Origin: a virus
Lineage: Duplodnaviria > Caudoviricetes
DNA: 49,383 nucleotides
Direction: 5' to 3' (one strand)
IMG/VR virus record: IMGVR_UViG_3300027533_000006
Span: 1 to 49,383 of that record
Shown here in pieces: positions 1 through 49,383 of this stretch. Under the pieces are notes generated by a model, which was not told where the DNA came from, did not search any database, and worked only from the letters and a program-made list of their open reading frames with translations. Every line of letters begins with the position of its first letter. Within the stretch, counting starts at the first letter, position 1. The position numbers were made by a program, and so were the translations under genes.

Positions 1-127
1 ACCACGTTCCGGATGTCGAGGAAGGCCTGATGGGCTGGGGCGAAGGTCCTTTCTCCAGCGTCACGGTCGTGATCGCGATCGTCTGGCTGATCTGCATCGT
101 ACTGAGCGGACGACAGGGGGTGAAATA
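1..127. repeat. Terminal direct repeat, left copy (circular assembly overlap)
   Basis: 1-127 is identical to 49257-49383; 127 nt is a common assembler k-mer length, implying a complete circular contig of 49,256 bp. Confidence 0.95.
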
Positions 128-128
128 G
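30..128 (+). CDS. Small membrane peptide (32 aa, MGWGEGPFSSVTVVIAIVWLICIVLSGRQGVK)
   Basis: ATG overlaps the TGA of the upstream gene (TGATG); one hydrophobic helix; below the ORF-track cutoff. Confidence 0.5.
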   Translation: MGWGEGPFSSVTVVIAIVWLICIVLSGRQGVK

Positions 129-192
129 TTGGTGTATGTGGTGTTTGTGTAATGGAAGAGAGAGGATAAACTTCTCTCACTAGGAGGTAGAG

Positions 193-5717: not shown

Positions 5718-6386
5718 ATGAACGGAGTCGTACTTCTCTCGGGTGGAATGGATAGCTCCACCCTGCTCGCACACTGCATCGACGCCTTCCCGGACGGACG
5801 GCACTACGCCATCTCGTTCGACTACGGGCAGAGGCACCGCCGGGAGCTCAACGCTGCCGCCGACATCGCACGGTATTTCAATACCCCCCACCAAATCGCG
5901 GACCTCCGTTCCGTTGGCCGTGACTTCATGTTCGGCAGCTCGCAGACCAGCATGATCCCAGTACCACAGGGCCACTACACGGACGACTCGATGCGCGTCA
6001 CCATCGTGCCGAACCGGAACATGGTGATGCTCTCCATTGCCACGGCGTTCGCAATTGCTAGCCATTCCGACTTCGTTGGCTACGCCGCGCACGCAGGGGA
6101 CCACGCGATCTACCCCGACTGCCGGCCGGAATTCGTCACCGCGATGGGCGAAGCCATTCGCCTGTGCGACGACCACAAGGTCAGCATCTACACCCCGTAC
6201 ATCGACCTGACGAAGGCACAGATCCTCGAGGAGGGCCTGTACCGTAACGTCCCTTACCAGCTTACCTGGACCTGTTACGAGGGCCTCAGCTTCCCCTGTG
6301 GGAAGTGTGGCACCTGCGTAGAACGGGCCGAGGCATTCGAGCTCAACAAACAGGGTGACCCCCTTCTCCAAGGAGGACCAGCATGA
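5718..6386 (+). CDS. queC: 7-cyano-7-deazaguanine (preQ0) synthase
   Basis: SGGMDS PP-loop, YGQRH, VPNRN, YPDCR, and TCY...CGKCGTC zinc site. Confidence 0.97.
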   Translation: MNGVVLLSGGMDSSTLLAHCIDAFPDGRHYAISFDYGQRHRRELNAAADIARYFNTPHQIADLRSVGRDFMFGSSQTSMIPVPQGHYTDDSMRVTIVPNRNMVMLSIATAFAIASHSDFVGYAAHAGDHAIYPDCRPEFVTAMGEAIRLCDDHKVSIYTPYIDLTKAQILEEGLYRNVPYQLTWTCYEGLSFPCGKCGTCVERAEAFELNKQGDPLLQGGPA

Positions 6387-7030
6387 ACGTGGAACAACGT
6401 GATCACATCTTCCCGCACATCAAGGATCTCGTCCCCCAGTACCTTCACGTGCGTACACACATCGCAGGCTCCGCTGCGATCACGGACACCTTCCACGACG
6501 TGGACGTCTGGATCCTCTGCGAACGAGGGCAACGGAAGTCCGTAGTGGAGGTCGTCCTCGCGCACCTCCACACGTTCGAGGAGTGTGTCGTAGACCAATC
6601 GCCTACTGCGCTCTACGGGATCCCGAACCTGAACAAGGTGGCCACAGTCTTCCACATGATCGACCAACCGATCCAGATCATGGTGTGGGAAGACCTCCAG
6701 GCGGACGAGGACAATGAACCGGACCTCCTCAACCTCCTCTCGGAGTTCGACCTCTCCGTGCACATGTGGGCGTACTCACTCGTGGATATCTACAAGCGCC
6801 GGTTCCAACACCCAGCGGCCACGCTCCCTGGCAACCCGATCGAGGTGCTCCGCTTCACCACTCCACACAGCACGCTGCGTCGGTACATCACGCTCAGCGA
6901 CAGGTATCGGACGAAGCTGAACTGGGAGTACATCGAGGAACTGGCCCGTCGGATCGTGGCCGTCGCCGAGCAGAAGGCCCTCAAGCAGATCGAGGACCTC
7001 GGAGTTCAACCTCCTTCGGAGCTGCTGTGA
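6383..7030 (+). CDS. Pol-beta superfamily nucleotidyltransferase (CCA/poly(A) polymerase head-like)
   Basis: IAGS-x7-HDVDVW catalytic signature; FDLSVHMWA resembles the DFTINA motif; ATGA-coupled to queC. Confidence 0.65.
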   Translation: MNVEQRDHIFPHIKDLVPQYLHVRTHIAGSAAITDTFHDVDVWILCERGQRKSVVEVVLAHLHTFEECVVDQSPTALYGIPNLNKVATVFHMIDQPIQIMVWEDLQADEDNEPDLLNLLSEFDLSVHMWAYSLVDIYKRRFQHPAATLPGNPIEVLRFTTPHSTLRRYITLSDRYRTKLNWEYIEELARRIVAVAEQKALKQIEDLGVQPPSELL

Positions 7031-10814: not shown

Positions 10815-11060
10815 ATGGACAAAGAGTATCGACGAGTCTGGTGCCGTATCATGAGACACCAAACTCCCATTTCCCGTTGGAGTAGACAGAATGACCGACA
10901 TACTACAGGACGTAGACCGCTTCCTCCGGATCGCGCAGACGGACGAGCTCCGCATCCTCCGCGACATGACGGAGAAGGAGCTGTCCCGTCGGAACGAGGC
11001 ACCTGCTTTCTCGAATGCCCAGACTGTCTCCGGAGGAGCGCAGGCTGGAGCGTACCGTGA
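10815..11060 (+). CDS. Possible small Zn-binding protein overlapping the next gene
   Basis: WC.IMRH...FLECPDC.R.S.GW motif; overlaps 10891-11577 in another frame. Confidence 0.35.
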   Translation: MDKEYRRVWCRIMRHQTPISRWSRQNDRHTTGRRPLPPDRADGRAPHPPRHDGEGAVPSERGTCFLECPDCLRRSAGWSVP

Positions 11061-11577
11061 GGAGGCCCGGGAGAACATGAAATCGGTGTCGATGCACACC
11101 TTCGCCACAGGGGCCAAGCGCAGCGAGCGGATGCCCAGATACGACCTCGTCGTCCACGACCTCATCCGCCGGATCGCGGAGCGGGCTACAGGAGAGGAGA
11201 CTCCAAACGGTCCAAGTGGCGGAGCACTCAAGTACGGTGAGGGCAACTGGGAGCGCGGGCTCCCGACCAGTGATGTGTTCAACCACATCATCCACCACCT
11301 CGGACGTCTCCAGGAAGAGTTCCGGGACGGTCTCTCCATTGCGTCCCGTTACGATGGCCAGGAACCGTGGCCGTTACGGATGGACGCCATCCGTAACCGC
11401 ATCAACGCTTTCCTCGCGGAGGACGATCACATTGGGGCTGTGGGATGGGGACTCATGGTCCTGTGTCATCAGCTCAAGACAGGCTTCTACCACGACACGA
11501 AGTTTGAGCAGGATACGGAAGTGCCACCTGTCCCTGTGGAGACAACGTTACCCCCCACCAAATCGAGGAAGCGATGA
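10891..11577 (+). CDS. dATP/dGTP diphosphohydrolase domain protein (DUF5664-like); alternative start ATG 11077
   Basis: F.TGAKRS...PRYDL...GALKYGEGNWERG...H...H...EDDH motif; directly coupled to queD. Confidence 0.8.
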   Translation: MTDILQDVDRFLRIAQTDELRILRDMTEKELSRRNEAPAFSNAQTVSGGAQAGAYREEARENMKSVSMHTFATGAKRSERMPRYDLVVHDLIRRIAERATGEETPNGPSGGALKYGEGNWERGLPTSDVFNHIIHHLGRLQEEFRDGLSIASRYDGQEPWPLRMDAIRNRINAFLAEDDHIGAVGWGLMVLCHQLKTGFYHDTKFEQDTEVPPVPVETTLPPTKSRKR

Positions 11578-12002
11578 ACTGTACCGCCCGAGTGACCATA
11601 GCAATGGGACACAGGCTTCTGGGGCACGACGGTCTATGCGCAAACATCCATGGCCACAATTACGTGTTCGAAGTGACCGTGATGGGTAACCCTGACGCAG
11701 TGGGCCTTGTGACAGACTTCTCGATCCTGAAGAAGGACATGCGGAAGCTCCTGGACCAACTCGACCACACGATGCTCCTGATTAAGGGGGACCCGGCCCA
11801 GGCGTACTTCGAGTCGACGGACAACCGCTTCATGCTCCTCACCCGAAATCCGAGTGCGGAGCACATCGCCTCGCTCATGTTCAACCACATGCAGGACCTC
11901 GCGTACAGCGTGAAGGAGGTCAGGGTGTTAGAGTCGGATGGTGGATGGGCCACCACCGACCGTGTTAACCGGGAAGTGCACCTGATAAAGGGGCGTGTAT
12001 GA
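11574..12002 (+). CDS. queD: 6-carboxy-5,6,7,8-tetrahydropterin synthase
   Basis: GHRL...C.NIHGHNY, LDH, NPSAE motifs. Confidence 0.95.
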   Translation: MNCTARVTIAMGHRLLGHDGLCANIHGHNYVFEVTVMGNPDAVGLVTDFSILKKDMRKLLDQLDHTMLLIKGDPAQAYFESTDNRFMLLTRNPSAEHIASLMFNHMQDLAYSVKEVRVLESDGGWATTDRVNREVHLIKGRV

Positions 12003-12631
12003 ACTACCCACTCGCCGAGAAGTTCAAGTCCATCCAGGGAGAAGGCATCTTCACAGGCACCCCGATGGCATTCGTCCGCATGGTCGGCTGCTCCGTGGGC
12101 CAGGGTGTATGTACTGCCTGCGACACGGACTTTGACCGGATGTACCCACAGCTTGGTGGGGGGTTGCACACTCCCCTCCAAATCGCTGAATGGGCAGAGC
12201 CCTACCACATCCTCTGCATTACGGGTGGGGAACCACTGGACCGCAACCTCTGCCTGCTCGTGGACGTGGTCCACAAGTTCGGAATGAAGGTCCACGTGGA
12301 GACCAGTGGCACCGTGGAGTACGATCCCGCAAGACACGGCTCCATCGACTGGATCACCGTGTCGCCCAAGCCGGGCTTCCTCCCCACAATGATCGAGCAG
12401 GCCTGTGAGCTCAAGGTGATCCTCGGGGGCCTGGGAGACACTACGGAAGGTTGGCCTACAGTGGAGCAAGCGAGACGCTGGGCCAAGGAGAAGGAGTTGG
12501 TCTACCTGCAGCCTCGGAACAAGAAGAACGTGATCGACGACATCGAGATGCAGAACGCAGAGGATGTCGTGCTCCACTACCCGGAGCTGAGGCTCAGCAC
12601 CCAGTTCCACAAGTTCATCAACGTGCGATGA
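11999..12631 (+). CDS. queE: 7-carboxy-7-deazaguanine synthase (radical SAM)
   Basis: F.SIQGEG, C-x6-C-x2-CDTD, ITGGEP, VETSG, VSPK, YLQP, QFHK. Confidence 0.95.
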   Translation: MNYPLAEKFKSIQGEGIFTGTPMAFVRMVGCSVGQGVCTACDTDFDRMYPQLGGGLHTPLQIAEWAEPYHILCITGGEPLDRNLCLLVDVVHKFGMKVHVETSGTVEYDPARHGSIDWITVSPKPGFLPTMIEQACELKVILGGLGDTTEGWPTVEQARRWAKEKELVYLQPRNKKNVIDDIEMQNAEDVVLHYPELRLSTQFHKFINVR

Positions 12632-13215
12632 CCAAGACAACGTTACCCCCCACCAAGCGGTTCGACGACCGCAAGATGCAACAAGGGGTCAAACTCCTCC
12701 TGGAGGGAATGGGAGTAGATCTGAGTGATCGTAATTACAAGGACACACCTGCCCGCGTCGCACGTATGTACAGGGAACTGTTTACTCCCCGTCACAACAG
12801 CTTCGCCACCTTCCCTGAACAACACGACTCCATGGTCATCCTCCGGGGTCACGTGGTGCACGGAGTCTGCCCACACCATCTCGTTCCAGTGGAGATGCGT
12901 GTGTACGTCGGTTACATTCCGCATAAAGAGGTCCTCGGTCTCAGCAAGCTGGCTCGAGTCGCTGAACAACCTCTCACAGGACCCATTATGCAGGAAACTT
13001 ACACAGACGCGGTGGTCGATCTCCTGCAACACGCCACAGACGCGAAAGGCGCTGGAGTCGTTGTTGTGGGGCGCCATGGTTGCATGCGCCACAGGGGAGT
13101 TCGCTCCGACGCAGACGTTGTCTCCTCTGCCATGAGGGGTCTCTTCATGACCAATCACCCCACCCGAGACGAGTTCCTCCGGATGATCGGCTACCCACGA
13201 GTGGAGGCAAGATGA
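12628..13215 (+). CDS. folE: GTP cyclohydrolase I
   Basis: TPARVAR, CPHHL.P, GLSKLAR, QE, H.CM..RG; ATG 12628 overlaps the queE stop. Confidence 0.95.
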   Translation: MTKTTLPPTKRFDDRKMQQGVKLLLEGMGVDLSDRNYKDTPARVARMYRELFTPRHNSFATFPEQHDSMVILRGHVVHGVCPHHLVPVEMRVYVGYIPHKEVLGLSKLARVAEQPLTGPIMQETYTDAVVDLLQHATDAKGAGVVVVGRHGCMRHRGVRSDADVVSSAMRGLFMTNHPTRDEFLRMIGYPRVEAR

Positions 13216-13370: not shown

Positions 13371-13654
13371 AGCAAACACACAAGGGGAAACGATACCCCC
13401 CATCAACGCATGACGAGCGCTACCAGGTCCGGAACGAATACATCGAGCGGGCACTGCGTACCCTGGCCACCTTGATCGACGAGGAGGTCCCGGAAGGGTG
13501 GGGATGGGGCCTGTTCCTCGTCCCGTTCGGAGAGCACGAAGCTGCCCCGAAGGGAGAGGGAGCCGTGTTCTGGATCTCCAACTCTGAGCGTGACGGGATG
13601 ATGGACTCCGTCCAGGGTTGGATAGACGATAACAAGAGACGGAGGAAGATGTGA
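13367..13654 (+). CDS. Hypothetical protein (95 aa)
   Basis: RBS AGGAGG; GW.L...F...WISN.ER pattern. Confidence 0.75.
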   Translation: MKQTHKGKRYPPSTHDERYQVRNEYIERALRTLATLIDEEVPEGWGWGLFLVPFGEHEAAPKGEGAVFWISNSERDGMMDSVQGWIDDNKRRRKM

Positions 13655-16128
13655 AGTGTCAAAACTCCGTCTGCAAGTCCGGCCCGGATGGCAAATCCGC
13701 AACCTCGGATTTGCACCCGAACACTGGGTTGTGCCCAGTGTGCCAGAAGCGCTTGATCACGGGACCCAAGCCTGACGACTGTATGGCGTGCCCCCTCTAC
13801 GAGATTGGTGAGGGGTACGCCTATGGTGTCGGACCCACGGATGCCGATATGATGTTCATCGGCGAAGCACTCGGCGAGGAGGAGGCCCGTAGGGGCCTCC
13901 CCTTCGTCGGTGGCTCTGGCCGGGTGCTCACTGCGCTGATGGGCCAAGCGGACATCCGCCGTGACGAGGTCTACATAACCAATGCCGTGAAATGTCGGCC
14001 ACCCAAGAACAGGAAGCCAGACGATGAAGAAATCCGATGGTGTGCCCGCTACCTCGTCAACGAGCTCAAACTCGTCAACCCCAAACTCCTCGTCCCTCTC
14101 GGAGCGACTGCGCTCTACGTCACTACAGGAAAGACAGAGATCGGTAGCTATCGCGGGATACCTATTGAGGGCGCTGGAGGAAGGAAGGTTCTCCCCACGT
14201 TTCACCCCGCGTTCGTCATGCGTACACAAACGTTCTGGCCGGTCGTCGTCTGGGACCTCGTCAAAGCGAAGCGGGAATCGCGGTTCCGGGAAGTCCGTCG
14301 CATCGACGTGGAGTATTCCATCCTCCCTGATGCTGAGGATCACGCAGATGCTGTTAGAAGAGAAGCCGAACTCACCGGCTTCGTCTCGATCGACGCCGAG
14401 ACAACGAGCCTCGACGTCCATGAAGCTCACATCAAATGCTACGGCGTCGGGTCGGCCGCAGGTCGTGCTAGGGTTTTCCGCTGGACCCCTCAAGCTCAGC
14501 GCCTACTCTACGGGCTCCTCTCAGATCCTACGATTGTTAAGGTCGGACAAAACTCCGAATCCTACGACTGGCCCCTCTTCGAAGACAAACGGCCAGGTTG
14601 GCGAGTAGCGGGGAACACCTGTGACACGATGCTCATGTTCCACCTTACAAACTCCGACCTTCCGAAGTCGCTGGACAACATCAAGACCTTCTACACGGAC
14701 ATGGAGCACTGGAAAGATGACTCTATGTACAAGGGTGATGAGGTTGGACTGGCCACTGGCTGCGCTAAGGACGTGGACGCGACCACACGTGCTTACCTGG
14801 GCCTTCGCGCTGAGATCCACAACATGGGGATGGATGACCTCCTATACAAGAACGTGATGCCCCTGCAACCCATCCTCCGTCGCATGGCCGACCGTGGAAT
14901 TCGGAAGGACACGGACAAAGCGGAACTCTGGGCACATGGAATGACCGCGGCCGCAGGCCGCTACGAACAGATGCTCCGGGATGCAGTGGGTCAGCCTAAC
15001 CTCAACGTGCAGAGCCCCAGGGAGTTGATGAAGCTCCTGTACGACACCATGGGCCTTCCCGTTCAACACGTGAAGGACCAGAAGGGCGGGATGCGTGCTA
15101 CGGCGAACGCGGCGGCGGTGGAAGCGCTGGTCGAGAAGTTCCCGGAGAACAAGATCCTGGGCCTGATCAACGAGATCCGAAGCGCTCACCACACCGTCAG
15201 CACGAATCTAGAGGTAAAGACCGATGAGCAGGGCTTCGTCCACCCACGTTTCGGGTGTGCTAAAGCGGCAACTGGGCGTATCAATTCGTGGGATCCGAAC
15301 GCCCAGAACATTCCGAAGAAGCTCCGGGAGATCTACATCCCGGACGATCCAGATCACGTTTTCATCAGCGTGGACTGGAGCCAGGTCGAGTGGCGAATTG
15401 CAATGGCACTCTCTGGCGATCCTTACGGTCTCGGACTTCTGGCGGCTGGTCAGGACATTCACGAGGTTACGGCCGCAGAGGGTTTCGGTCTACCTCTTTC
15501 TCGAGTCCGAGACCTCGTTCCCGGTAAGCAGTACAATTACCGTTACGCCACGAAGTTCATCGTGTACGGCCTCGGCTACGGACGGGGAGCACAGTCAATC
15601 GCTCAGCAGCTCGGGACAACCAAGTCGTGGGTCGAGTCCTTCCTGCTCCGCTTCTTCAACAAGTACCACGTGTACGAACGGTGGCGCAAGTCCCTCGAGG
15701 AACAGGTCGAGCGACAGCACTTCCTCGCTAACCCGTTCGGCCGACGGAGGTGGTGGTACACCAGGCAAGTGACGGAGATGTACAACTTCCCTCCGCAGAG
15801 CACGGGAGCGGACATGATGTACGTCGCCATACGGGAAGCGGACGAGCAGCTCCCACACGGAGCGAGTGTAAGGCTTACCGTGCACGACGAGCTCGTGGTT
15901 GTGAGCCACAGGGATGTAGTGAAGGAGGCCACGGAATGTCTCACAAGTGTGATGCAACGCTCATGGCCGGAAATCGTGGGCGCCTCACGCGATCCAGCTA
16001 CAGTGCGCAAGTTCTATCCTCACGGATGGCGCGTGCCCGCAGAGCCCAGCTACGGGCCGAGGAATTGGATGGAGACGAAGCTGGAAGGGGAAGCACAGAT
16101 GAAGTTCAGGAAGGAGCTCGGACTATGA
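13651..16128 (+). CDS. polA: Family A DNA polymerase with N-terminal family-4 uracil-DNA glycosylase domain and 3'-5' exonuclease
   Basis: UDG4: C..CPL, GEALG.EE, PFVG.SG, N.VKCRPP.NR.P, FHPA. Exo: DAET. Pol: DWSQVEWR, R...K...YG..YG, VHDE. Confidence 0.95.
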   Translation: MKCQNSVCKSGPDGKSATSDLHPNTGLCPVCQKRLITGPKPDDCMACPLYEIGEGYAYGVGPTDADMMFIGEALGEEEARRGLPFVGGSGRVLTALMGQADIRRDEVYITNAVKCRPPKNRKPDDEEIRWCARYLVNELKLVNPKLLVPLGATALYVTTGKTEIGSYRGIPIEGAGGRKVLPTFHPAFVMRTQTFWPVVVWDLVKAKRESRFREVRRIDVEYSILPDAEDHADAVRREAELTGFVSIDAETTSLDVHEAHIKCYGVGSAAGRARVFRWTPQAQRLLYGLLSDPTIVKVGQNSESYDWPLFEDKRPGWRVAGNTCDTMLMFHLTNSDLPKSLDNIKTFYTDMEHWKDDSMYKGDEVGLATGCAKDVDATTRAYLGLRAEIHNMGMDDLLYKNVMPLQPILRRMADRGIRKDTDKAELWAHGMTAAAGRYEQMLRDAVGQPNLNVQSPRELMKLLYDTMGLPVQHVKDQKGGMRATANAAAVEALVEKFPENKILGLINEIRSAHHTVSTNLEVKTDEQGFVHPRFGCAKAATGRINSWDPNAQNIPKKLREIYIPDDPDHVFISVDWSQVEWRIAMALSGDPYGLGLLAAGQDIHEVTAAEGFGLPLSRVRDLVPGKQYNYRYATKFIVYGLGYGRGAQSIAQQLGTTKSWVESFLLRFFNKYHVYERWRKSLEEQVERQHFLANPFGRRRWWYTRQVTEMYNFPPQSTGADMMYVAIREADEQLPHGASVRLTVHDELVVVSHRDVVKEATECLTSVMQRSWPEIVGASRDPATVRKFYPHGWRVPAEPSYGPRNWMETKLEGEAQMKFRKELGL

Positions 16129-16358
16129 AAATTGGAGACATCGAGAGGGACAGCCACACCTCGTGCTACACATGTGGCTGCGGCTGCTTCACCAAGGTGT
16201 ACAACGTGAACATGCAAGGACGGGGAGAGGAGACACTGCACCCAGCGTACCAGTGCGTCCGCTGTGGCAGCGTGCTCGCGTTCCTCCTGGACAAGAATCG
16301 GCATCGGGAGGTTGTGGGCAGCATCTGTGTCGAAGTGAAGATGGAGGTCGCGAAGTGA
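16125..16358 (+). CDS. Zn-ribbon protein (77 aa)
   Basis: CYTC and CVRC; RBS AAGGAG; ATGA overlap with the polA stop. Confidence 0.7.
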   Translation: MKIGDIERDSHTSCYTCGCGCFTKVYNVNMQGRGEETLHPAYQCVRCGSVLAFLLDKNRHREVVGSICVEVKMEVAK

Positions 16359-17077
16359 AGCTGTGTATGGAGATTCCCGTCGAACACCTCTGGGACCTCT
16401 CGCCTCTGTGCGAGATGGACTTCGCCCTGGCACACATGGTTCTGGACAACAAGCTCTACGCCGAGTTCTACCGGGAGATGAGTGCACGGGGCAGGGAGGT
16501 AATCCTTGACAACAGCTTCCACGAGCTGGGAGTGCCCCTGAGCCCAGTCGAGCTCCGCTTGGCCGCGAGGGCGATAAAGCCCACAGTGGTCGTTGCGCCA
16601 GACCGGCTCGGAGATAGAACGTGGAACTGGGAGCAGTATGAAGAGACGCTCCGTGTGTTCAAGAAGGAGTTCCAGGTCGGGATCGTGGTTACTGGAGGAG
16701 ATCCCAACGTCCGGAGCCAGTTCATAGCGGCCGCGCTAAGCCGAGGTTGCAGCTGGTTCTTCTGGCCCTTCAAGGAGCCACGTAGCGAATGGATCCGGAC
16801 GCACATCCAGGAGTTCAAGCGATACGAGGTCCGGCACCATCTCCTCGGAGTGAACACCCTGTCCGAGCTAAAGAGCATCCGCACGATCCTCGAGGAGCAA
16901 GGGATCAAGGCAAGTGTGGACACCAGTAAGCCGATCAAGTTCGGGCAACAGCTGAAGCGGTTCGAGCCGGGGATCGATTTACGGGGAACGGGGCCGTTAC
17001 GGATGGACGCTGTCCTGACAAAGGAGGAGCTGGCGTGCACGTACTACAACGTGGCGTATCTCAGGAGATTCGCATGA
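16355..17077 (+). CDS. dpdA: Divergent DpdA/TGT-like (TIM-barrel) 7-deazaguanine transglycosylase
   Basis: ILDNS, APD.LGD, HHLLG and SVDTS correspond to TGT/DpdA motifs; same arm as queCDE/folE. Confidence 0.7.
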   Translation: MKLCMEIPVEHLWDLSPLCEMDFALAHMVLDNKLYAEFYREMSARGREVILDNSFHELGVPLSPVELRLAARAIKPTVVVAPDRLGDRTWNWEQYEETLRVFKKEFQVGIVVTGGDPNVRSQFIAAALSRGCSWFFWPFKEPRSEWIRTHIQEFKRYEVRHHLLGVNTLSELKSIRTILEEQGIKASVDTSKPIKFGQQLKRFEPGIDLRGTGPLRMDAVLTKEELACTYYNVAYLRRFA

Positions 17078-47926: not shown

Positions 47927-47949
47927 ACCAGATGCTGGAAGCATCTGGT
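47927..47949. promoter_or_regulatory. Perfect palindrome in the divergent intergenic region
   Basis: ACCAGATGCT-gga-AGCATCTGGT. Confidence 0.45.
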
Positions 47950-48058
47950 CTGGGGGTGGGGCGTATGTCTGTGTCTGTATGTAGATGTATCGATGAGTGA
48001 AGTGTGGTGGTACGATCGTGAGTACTGTATATGGTCATTGTGTTTAAGGAGAGTGTGT

Positions 48059-48223
48059 ATGCTTACGTTTCTGTTGATCATGTTACGTCAGGAAATCGTT
48101 GCTGCGACATCGTCCGGGTTCCAGTGGTTCCTTCTTTCACTGATCGTCGTCGAGCTCACGGTCGAACTGGGGTATTACGTAATGGTTGTGGACCGTTGGG
48201 GAGGCGGGGTTGATCGAGATTAG
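48059..48223 (+). CDS. Small membrane protein (54 aa)
   Basis: RBS AAGGAG before ATG 48059; hydrophobic. Confidence 0.5.
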   Translation: MLTFLLIMLRQEIVAATSSGFQWFLLSLIVVELTVELGYYVMVVDRWGGGVDRD

Positions 48224-48289
48224 GTGGTACTTGAAATTGAGGTAGTTGTGGTAGTTATGTTTTTGGTTTGTGTTAATTAGGAGGTAGTG

Positions 48290-48472
48290 ATGGAAAAGAA
48301 GAATTGGGTTGAAGAAGGGTTTGTGAAGAAGAGTGTTGAGATGTTGGTTAGGAGGAATGGGAAGTTTTTGCAGGTGGTGGTAGTTGGGAAGGATGGTAAG
48401 GAAGGTTATTTTTTGATGAGTGAGGTTGTTGAGTTTTGGGATGTTAGAGAGAAGAAAGGGTTTGAGTTGTAG
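48290..48472 (+). CDS. Cytosine-free early gene (60 aa; GTG 48287 is an alternative start)
   Basis: RBS TAGGAGGT, open frame and downstream terminator; only one C (Gln codon CAG at 48371). Confidence 0.8.
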   Translation: MEKKNWVEEGFVKKSVEMLVRRNGKFLQVVVVGKDGKEGYFLMSEVVEFWDVREKKGFEL

Positions 48473-48477
48473 GAGGG

Positions 48478-48511
48478 AAAAAGCTAGCTGAAAAGCTAGC
48501 TTTTTTTTTTT
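48478..48511 (+). terminator. Rho-independent (possibly bidirectional) terminator
   Basis: AAAAAGCTAGC-tgaaaa-GCTAGCTTTTTTTTTTT. Confidence 0.88.
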
Positions 48512-48596
48512 GTAAGGCTGTGGTAATTCGATCCGTGGCCTTTCGTCTGGCAACGCCCCTCAAGCCCTTAGCCCGTCGCCCCTGCACCCCACTCGC

Positions 48597-48625
48597 TTGA
48601 CGTTGGGGTTAAATTGTGATAGTAT
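48597..48625 (+). promoter_or_regulatory. Sigma70-like promoter (TTGACG-17-TAGTAT, extended -10)
   Basis: Consensus spacing, upstream of RBS AAGGAGG. Confidence 0.7.
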
Positions 48626-48651
48626 GTGGTTATTTGTGAAGGAGGATAGAT

Positions 48652-48873
48652 ATGGACGAAGGCAATATATCGATCGTGTTGCTTCGGAGTACAGTCGTAC
48701 TCAAGAAGATCTGCGGACACGACACGATCGTCGTATGCGGCGTGTGTCCGACATGCGGGGCGAAGATCGACTTCCTGGTCACGGTGTACAGCGATCAGAC
48801 ACCTGAGGAGGCATTCGAACAGTTCTGGCGAACGGTAGAGCTCGACTGTCCGCGAGGAGAGGATCATGAATAA
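48652..48873 (+). CDS. Cys-rich hypothetical protein (73 aa)
   Basis: RBS AAGGAGG; CPTCG. Confidence 0.75.
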   Translation: MDEGNISIVLLRSTVVLKKICGHDTIVVCGVCPTCGAKIDFLVTVYSDQTPEEAFEQFWRTVELDCPRGEDHE

Positions 48874-49042
48874 GCGGATGGAGTACGAGCACTGGAAACA
48901 GATGGTCGACAAGATCATCATTCGTACGATCGGCATCGACTCGGAAGGGATACCGGACTACGACTACACTAAGGCGTACAACTACGGATGGACGCCTACT
49001 CGGACGGCAACGGCAGCAATCGCAGCAGCGAGGAGATTCTAA
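48866..49042 (+). CDS. Small hypothetical protein (58 aa, MNKRMEYEHWKQMVDK...)
   Basis: RBS AGGAG; W...VD....G...IPD.DY...Y..G.TP pattern. Confidence 0.7.
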   Translation: MNKRMEYEHWKQMVDKIIIRTIGIDSEGIPDYDYTKAYNYGWTPTRTATAAIAAARRF

Positions 49043-49043
49043 C

Positions 49044-49286
49044 ATGGCAAACAAGGTCAACAACCCGGATTGGCGTGAGGCGACAGTGATTCCCGACTCA
49101 CTCGTCTCGACGGATGAGATCATCGACAAGACGACGCAGATCCACTTCTTCAGCGACGGCGACATGACGCCGGAGCGCATCGAGGCCATCTTCTCTCAGG
49201 GCTTGACTGTGGATCCGCATCGGATCTCCGCAGTCTGCGTGACGGAGACGATCAAGACCACGTTCCGGATGTCGAGGAAGGCCTGA
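49044..49286 (+). CDS. Hypothetical protein (80 aa)
   Basis: RBS AGGAG; packed. Confidence 0.75.
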   Translation: MANKVNNPDWREATVIPDSLVSTDEIIDKTTQIHFFSDGDMTPERIEAIFSQGLTVDPHRISAVCVTETIKTTFRMSRKA

Positions 49287-49383
49287 TGGGCTGGGGCGAA
49301 GGTCCTTTCTCCAGCGTCACGGTCGTGATCGCGATCGTCTGGCTGATCTGCATCGTACTGAGCGGACGACAGGGGGTGAAATA
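49257..49383. repeat. Terminal direct repeat, right copy
   Basis: Identical to 1-127. Confidence 0.95.

Follow-up and report, generated by a model that had tools for sequence, protein, structure and literature searches.

The analyzed phage genome (49,383 nt in length, 31% C, hereafter the window) carries close to one of its ends a gene written almost without cytosine. The 253 nt at positions 48231..48483 of the plus strand comprised 99 G, 84 T, 69 A, and a single C; the template (minus) strand of this tract therefore holds only one G. We consider it probable, with modest confidence, that a guanine-free template keeps the first genes of the phage readable despite the phage's own predicted modified guanine or despite host glycosylases cutting modified guanine. 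This reading is built on four observations: the coding strand is C-free, the tract holds its position throughout the family, the lack of C does not depend on the protein family, and genes for guanine modification are present.

The C-free tract, its predicted product, and the likely genome end

The tract comprised a putative promoter and leader, a ribosome-binding site, an ORF of 60 amino acids, and the run-up to a terminator. The leader (48231..48289, plus strand) had 0 C in 59 nt and contained AGGAGG at 48279-48284; a consensus promoter scan called no match in it. The sole C of the tract (48371) lies within the CAG codon for Gln and separates two C-free halves of 140 and 112 nt. The first four Cs after the tract, beginning at 48484, were located in a terminator-like hairpin followed by a T run (48478..48511, plus strand; fold of -19.8 kcal/mol), although the consensus terminator scan, with 0 terminators found, did not call this hairpin. 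Thus, an earlier note on this DNA, which had described a leader, a ribosome-binding site, and a 60-aa ORF sharing one C, with cytosine returning in the terminator stem, was borne out by base count and folding.

A chance origin of the tract is excluded. Its probability under independent letters was 1e-39, and the longest span of the window with no more than 3 C was 278 nt, compared with a mean of 47 nt and a maximum of 59 nt in 30 block shuffles. Given the protein and the codon use of the genome, the chance of the lowest-C codon at every position was 5e-24. The absence of Ala, Pro, Thr, and His had a chance of 5e-7 with seven other early genes as a reference and of 2e-4 with ordinary alleles of the same family. 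The next C-free runs of the window measured 56 nt (115-170), 55 nt (48602-48656), and then 25 nt. The origin of the tract from a chimera or a contaminant was rejected: the same ORF with its flanks was present in three other viral contigs, a relative of 87% identity, still with 1% C, occurred with its flanks in two contigs, and both boundaries were bridged by single contigs in sequencing runs X2 (possibly the source of the window) and X9.

The predicted 60-aa protein (48290..48472, plus strand) belongs to a small phage protein family and is predicted by a structural model to form a three-stranded beta sheet. Its translation agreed with what had been noted of its codons and residues: Ala, Pro, Thr, and His were lacking, Ser was encoded only by AGT, Arg by AGR, and Leu by TTG. 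No match was found in Pfam or PHROG at E 0.01, where anti-DarT1 NADAR and known anti-defence families were also sought, or in the Atlas, and structure searches with the predicted model gave no fold match. In a comparison with Whirly-type folds (PC4/Pur-alpha-like), the top Foldseek row was Pur-alpha (E 0.44, TM 0.32); the best Z of a wide structure search was 2.6. The protein family contained both C-free (0–1% C) and ordinary (12–35% C) members.

The contig of the window was circular with an overlap of 127 nt, and the genome was podovirus-like with an SU10-type portal. Between about 47930 and, over the join, about 800, contig depth rose to about 2–3 times the flanking level, which makes a direct terminal repeat some 2.1 kb long likely; its left part would occupy 47930..49383. 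Depths of repeat and flanks, as contig depths summed over strains rather than raw reads, were 11 vs. 2–6 in run X9, 20–48 vs. 7–24 in X10, 25–50 vs. 9–32 in X13, and 9–11 vs. 1–4 in X14. The left edge was seen in X10, X13, and more weakly X9; the right edge in X9, X10, X13, and X14, the latter showing this edge only. Near the left step, a perfect hairpin precedes a G-rich motif that is shared across the family (47927..47965, plus strand); this landmark is likely the genome end. In the window and at the equivalent sites, a small hairpin or repeat whose loop is TAAA lies immediately 5' of the G-rich motif, and a packaging or repeat-duplication signal is possible. AT-rich TATA repeats (770-830) lie where the elevated depth ends on the right, and a 69-nt GA repeat was found at a similar position in genome G002.

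Between the landmark and the tract lies a hydrophobic ORF of 54 amino acids with ordinary cytosine content (48059..48223, plus strand; 33 C of 165), which is absent from the relative with 96% TerL identity. The C-free gene, placed by the earlier note at the start of the early arm, is thus the second gene of that arm in this genome. Downstream of the hairpin, a C-rich spacer (48520..48601, plus strand; 34 C in 82 nt) precedes a sigma-70-like promoter, TTGACG-17-TAGTAT, with leader and ribosome-binding site (48597..48656, plus strand). The -35 box of this second promoter retained its C, while the spacer, the -10 box, the leader, and the ribosome-binding site (48602-48656) were C-free. The third C-free run (115..170, plus strand) is positioned 5' of gene 193-432, inside the likely terminal repeat over the join; both of these shorter runs sit on the next promoter-leader regions. 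C-rich, G-poor spacers right after early terminators were noted in the window at 48520-48601 and 490-560, and such C-rich spacers also in loci L005, L031, L061, L092, and L147.

Guanine-modification genes in the window and in cultured phages

Genes for guanine modification were encoded on the plus strand of the window. They included queC (5718..6386; Pfam PF06508, 3e-56), a dATP/dGTP diphosphohydrolase-like gene (10891..11577; Pfam PF18909, 2.7e-7), queD, queE, and folE (11574..13215; Pfam/PHROG matches), and a gene for a putative TGT-fold, guanine transglycosylase-like protein related to DpdA3 (16358..17077; model and profile). Homology thus supports the premise of the earlier note that the phage modifies guanine, and virion guanine is predicted from these genes to be largely or fully replaced. 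As queF was not found in the genome of the window, preQ0 or an amide derivative is our guess for the final base. A family A DNA polymerase with an N-terminal UDG-like domain was also encoded (13651..16128, plus strand; Pfam). The UDG-fused PolA group has been tied to T-modified phages (PMC13697223); here, this polymerase occurs in a predicted G-modified phage. No RNA polymerase gene was matched by Pfam and PHROG among 71 scanned ORFs.

The product of gene 16358-17077 had no Pfam match. Its AF2 model (pLDDT 96.6) gave TGT (1.8e-7) and DpdA (7ui4, 1.7e-6) as top Foldseek hits. A profile of its family (A4), made of 61 of the 102 family sequences with distant members included, matched DpdA3 of phages immuto_2-6A (4.9e-70), CP220 (1.2e-51), and phiST (3.3e-20) and had no match in the DpdA1 phages CAjan, Iggy, and 9g. 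Direct tblastn against DpdA3 phages revealed only 22–29% identity. By its profile, the protein is closer to DpdA3 than to DpdA1; since the profile takes in distant members, it possibly represents a sister subfamily.

We searched seven cultured DpdA3-type phages (immuto_2-6A, phiST, CP220, BSP7, Youna2, MA9V-3, and Ahp1) and ten controls (CAjan, Iggy, 9g, ICP2, CW02, T7, T5, phi38:1, GP100, and LS06) for ORFs with less than a third of the median C. Gene 128 of immuto_2-6A (immuto26A_128; L220:3831-4187, corresponding to MW353175 68330-68686) had 1.4% C on the coding strand, the median being 14.6%, with a low-C span of 381 nt, whereas shuffled sequences reached at most 144–154 nt. This near C-free gene belongs to an array of small genes; a motif repeated upstream of the genes of this array loses its C at gene 128. 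No C-free gene was found in the six other DpdA3-type phages, and neither a C-free gene nor a run in the ten controls. One of seven against none of ten is suggestive, not significant. Moderately C-poor ORFs were seen near record ends in ICP2 (49391-49639, 8.4% vs. 19.4%) and BSP7 (53842-54021, 6.7% vs. 17.9%). ICP2 is a control without que genes, so mild C depletion is not specific. The Bacillus-group phages BSP7 (L184) and Youna2 encoded queC/D, folE, and a protein of the DpdA3 type that is listed as hypothetical in their annotation. GA/TC deserts were sought in DpdA1 phages and none were called, with no null computed.

Complete replacement of guanine has been reported for immuto_2-6A, CP220, and phiST (10.1101/2023.04.13.536721). 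The base is fdPreQ1 in immuto_2-6A, unsubstituted 7-deazaguanine in phiST, and an amide base in CP220. The window phage has in common with these DpdA3 phages both the pathway (FolE/QueD/QueE, and QueC) and a TGT-fold protein related to DpdA3; it differs in the low identity of that protein, in that no queF was found, and in its 49-kb, podovirus-like genome of 60% GC. Transcription and C-free genes are not mentioned in the accessible part of the DpdA3-phage paper (10.1101/2023.04.13.536721). We found no report of C-free phage genes in a literature search covering mainly openly accessible papers. The three-letter terminal module thus has no described counterpart that we found, while the modification system itself is of a known kind.

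In the terminal-repeat and pre-early regions of T5 and T7, small variable genes likewise occupy an end thought to enter first (the first-step-transfer region of T5 is known from its annotation). Neither phage has a C-free gene or run; T5 and T7 avoid particular (restriction) sites at most.

C-free modules across the phage family

TerL searches gave 65 family loci (49–100% identity) and 15 outgroup loci (22–31%). After 26 family loci were dropped because of short upstream DNA or near-duplication, 39 distinct relatives were left. Spans with no more than 3 C measured 258–1,406 nt in 14 of them, 100–199 nt in 4, and below 100 nt in 21; maximal low-C spans in the outgroup were 31–79 nt, with no long run in any of the 15 loci. 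The long runs were positioned on the early coding strand, began at or soon after the conserved motif beside terS, and took in as many as six or more small genes, most of which had no relation to those of the window. The scan of related phages suggested in the earlier note therefore revealed a family trait, along with homologues of normal C content. The earlier note described one whole gene; across the family the feature is larger, a terminal module that reaches 1.4 kb, varies, and is exchangeable.

In locus L076, about 1.1 kb without any C was found within 605-2011 nt upstream of terL, encompassing six or more small ORFs, several of them Cys-rich. Its close kin L091, L097, and L079 carried different genes under the same C-free rule. 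L023/G002 contained two paralogues of the small protein with ordinary C in tandem units, the second being preceded by a C-free leader of 45 nt.

The codon test compared 25 C-free genes, which together hold 16 C in 4,875 nt, with 16 ordinary alleles. Strand-specific mutation instead of selection, namely deamination of cytosines in the displaced strand close to the end of the genome, would account for C loss being restricted to one end, and deamination of the non-template strand fits the direction of the bias. However, the endings of Val codons in the C-free genes were A 0.27, G 0.42, and T 0.31, whereas C-to-T conversion would give T 0.56–0.59 and A 0.07–0.09. All 91 Arg codons were AGR and all 74 Ser codons AGY; in silico C-to-T conversion of ordinary alleles introduced stops; and the lost C was redistributed over A, G, and T. 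The tract boundaries are also sharp and C survives in hairpins. Plain C-to-T mutation is rejected by this codon use, and we regard a mutational origin as highly improbable. Ala, Pro, Thr, His, and Gln together made up less than 1% of residues in the C-free genes, compared with 16% in the ordinary alleles. Codon use and residue loss together uphold the earlier claim that selection on nucleotide content dictates the protein sequence.

The G fraction of the C-free tracts was undiminished (33–42%), which argues that G costs little on the coding strand but is costly on the template. A constraint at the RNA level would read the same base differently: a C-free message could be made under CTP scarcity or in the presence of ddhCTP of the viperin type, as the earlier note had also proposed. 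Every C would then carry an independent cost, as observed, and the tract indeed stops at the terminator stem, the long tracts covering whole transcription units. This explanation leaves the DpdA3 link unaccounted for, and untranscribed spacers, at 48602-48625 in the window (0 C, 8 G) and at one promoter of genome G003, are C-free as well; we therefore hold it to be quite unlikely. The C fraction of promoter spacers was 0.13 near the end, a set with two sites inside tracts, and 0.19 further in, and this comparison does not separate DNA-level from RNA-level causes.

Avoidance of Rho sites and of stable G-C structure by a C-free, G-rich RNA, or promotion of an R-loop at the end for entry or for replication priming, seems more doubtful still. 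Rho binds preferentially to RNA rich in C, and R-loops are favoured where the non-template strand is rich in G; the 224-nt tract folds weakly (-20.6 kcal/mol), and the C-rich spacers after terminators would also fit. Such graded needs, however, would not clear 1.1 kb of every C or eliminate five amino acids, and no comparable feature occurs in the controls T7, T5, and two phages of the Zobellviridae type.

On the TerL tree, the long-tract state changed about 6 times, at least 4 of these changes being forced by well-supported branches. In the 12 complete family genomes, queC/D/E, folE, and the DpdA3-like gene were always present, and long tracts were found in two (278 and 258 nt), the remaining ten having 41–84 nt. 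No gene among the early genes of these genomes separated long-tract from short-tract ones, the two long-tract genomes being close relatives. The window gene following queC (6383-7030, no Pfam match), which we take to carry a nucleotidyltransferase-like motif, occurred only in G001, G002, and L070 among those checked; as a long-tract marker it was rejected because it is also present in short-tract G002. Two long-tract lineages that were checked and had enough DNA, L079 and L147, carried queC, and the L147 record also queD/E and folE.

L031, which is C-free, and L038, whose homologue has 21% C, were 97.4% identical over 7,219 nt, with the match breaking off at the landmark. In L147 and in the L138 group, the terminal genes were related but in opposite C states, and the queE/folE DNA was 82–89% alike. 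The terminal module is thus exchangeable between lineages. Patchy, exchangeable alleles in near-identical phages with the same cassette would also fit an arms race with a host enzyme unrelated to the phage modification, which either ADP-ribosylates template G in single-stranded DNA (DarT1 type) or modifies or deaminates C. In the latter form, C would be attacked in the displaced strand or in mRNA; in either form, the C-free genes would be antidotes readable under attack. The earlier note had similarly proposed that the stretch may avoid a C- or G-targeting ssDNA enzyme during entry. DarT1-type toxins are known to act on replication after infection sensing, which counts against this possibility. 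ADP-ribosylation has been published for guanosine (DarT1; PMC11543638, PMC11825919) and for cytidine in nucleic acids (PMC12945103). Both systems in which we found C-free genes, however, encode guanine modification of the DpdA3 type, no C-free gene was found in the 10 controls, and no product resembles NADAR or another known antidote; we judge such an enzyme to be an unlikely cause.

A proposed role for the guanine-free template of the first genes

Under the favoured explanation of a guanine-free template, virion guanine would be largely replaced by a 7-deazaguanine derivative, probably preQ0 or an amide derivative, and this genome end would enter or be read first. Each modified G on the template would then be costly, either by directly pausing or blocking RNA polymerase or by excision and nicking by a host glycosylase of the Dag type; on the other strand it would be cheap and would remain frequent. 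The module would be swapped among lineages according to the host. Its small products would probably act early against the host; they may help the remaining early genes to be read, although it is also possible that the module does no more than gain time.

Several points favour this explanation. The base missing from the template is G, which matches the full preQ0 pathway and the TGT/DpdA-like protein encoded, and one rule applies across unrelated proteins over up to 1.4 kb. Immuto_2-6A with fdPreQ1 has a near C-free gene, whereas phiST, whose base RNA polymerase tolerates, has none. Bacterial RNA polymerase was reported to tolerate plain 7-deazaguanine in vitro, while bulkier 7-substituents blocked the enzymes of E. 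coli and B. subtilis (PMC4838386), in agreement with the contrast between immuto_2-6A and phiST. The substituents in that study were synthetic and not preQ0, the block occurred at initiation and not elongation, strands were not resolved, and no natural sequence adaptation is described in its accessible part (PMC4838386). Dag1 was reported to cut 7-deazaguanine DNA in proportion to modification and to have homologues in many phyla (10.1101/2025.10.29.685425); host glycosylases so distributed would explain a constant cassette (12/12) with patchy tracts (2/12). The Dag1/Dag2 target is the base predicted in the window phage. These enzymes belong to the host side, and the escape reported in the accessible part of that work consists in losing DpdA activity and does not involve a G-free strand.

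Other observations argue against the guanine-free template. The cassette is present in all complete genomes and the long tract in few of them; L031 and L038 show that near-identical phages manage both ways; and the six cultured DpdA3-type phages without a C-free gene include CP220 with its amide base. The polymerase block was seen at initiation (PMC4838386), and the second promoter of the window keeps its -35 C. Parental DNA must also serve as template for some 18 kb of early genes with ordinary C content, and a glycosylase would cut the G-rich coding strand too. Neither the polymerase form nor the glycosylase form alone would account for how these other early genes are read. The proposal of the earlier note that a G-free template lets host polymerase express a first protein from modified DNA gains from the near C-free gene of the cultured, fully G-replaced immuto_2-6A; in its strict form, in which the template must be G-free, it fails, because phages carrying this cassette also have homologues with 12–35% C.

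More tentatively, and with considerable doubt, fully G-modified phages may carry a three-letter "boot sector", that is, a swappable terminal module with a G-free template. Such a module would remain intact and legible in the face of host glycosylases or polymerases acting on modified guanine, and its proteins, written in an alphabet of 15 amino acids, would disarm that defence or adapt the host polymerase, opening the remainder of the genome to transcription.

The genes and operons described here are natural three-letter sequences from which five amino acids have been lost; in them, selection on a single base overrides protein sequence. If modified guanine is the cause, they would answer how fully substituted phage DNA starts expression on the host polymerase, and composition alone would mark candidate counter-defence or polymerase-adapting proteins. 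Since immuto_2-6A is in culture and its modification has been measured, its gene 128 already offers a way to test the idea.
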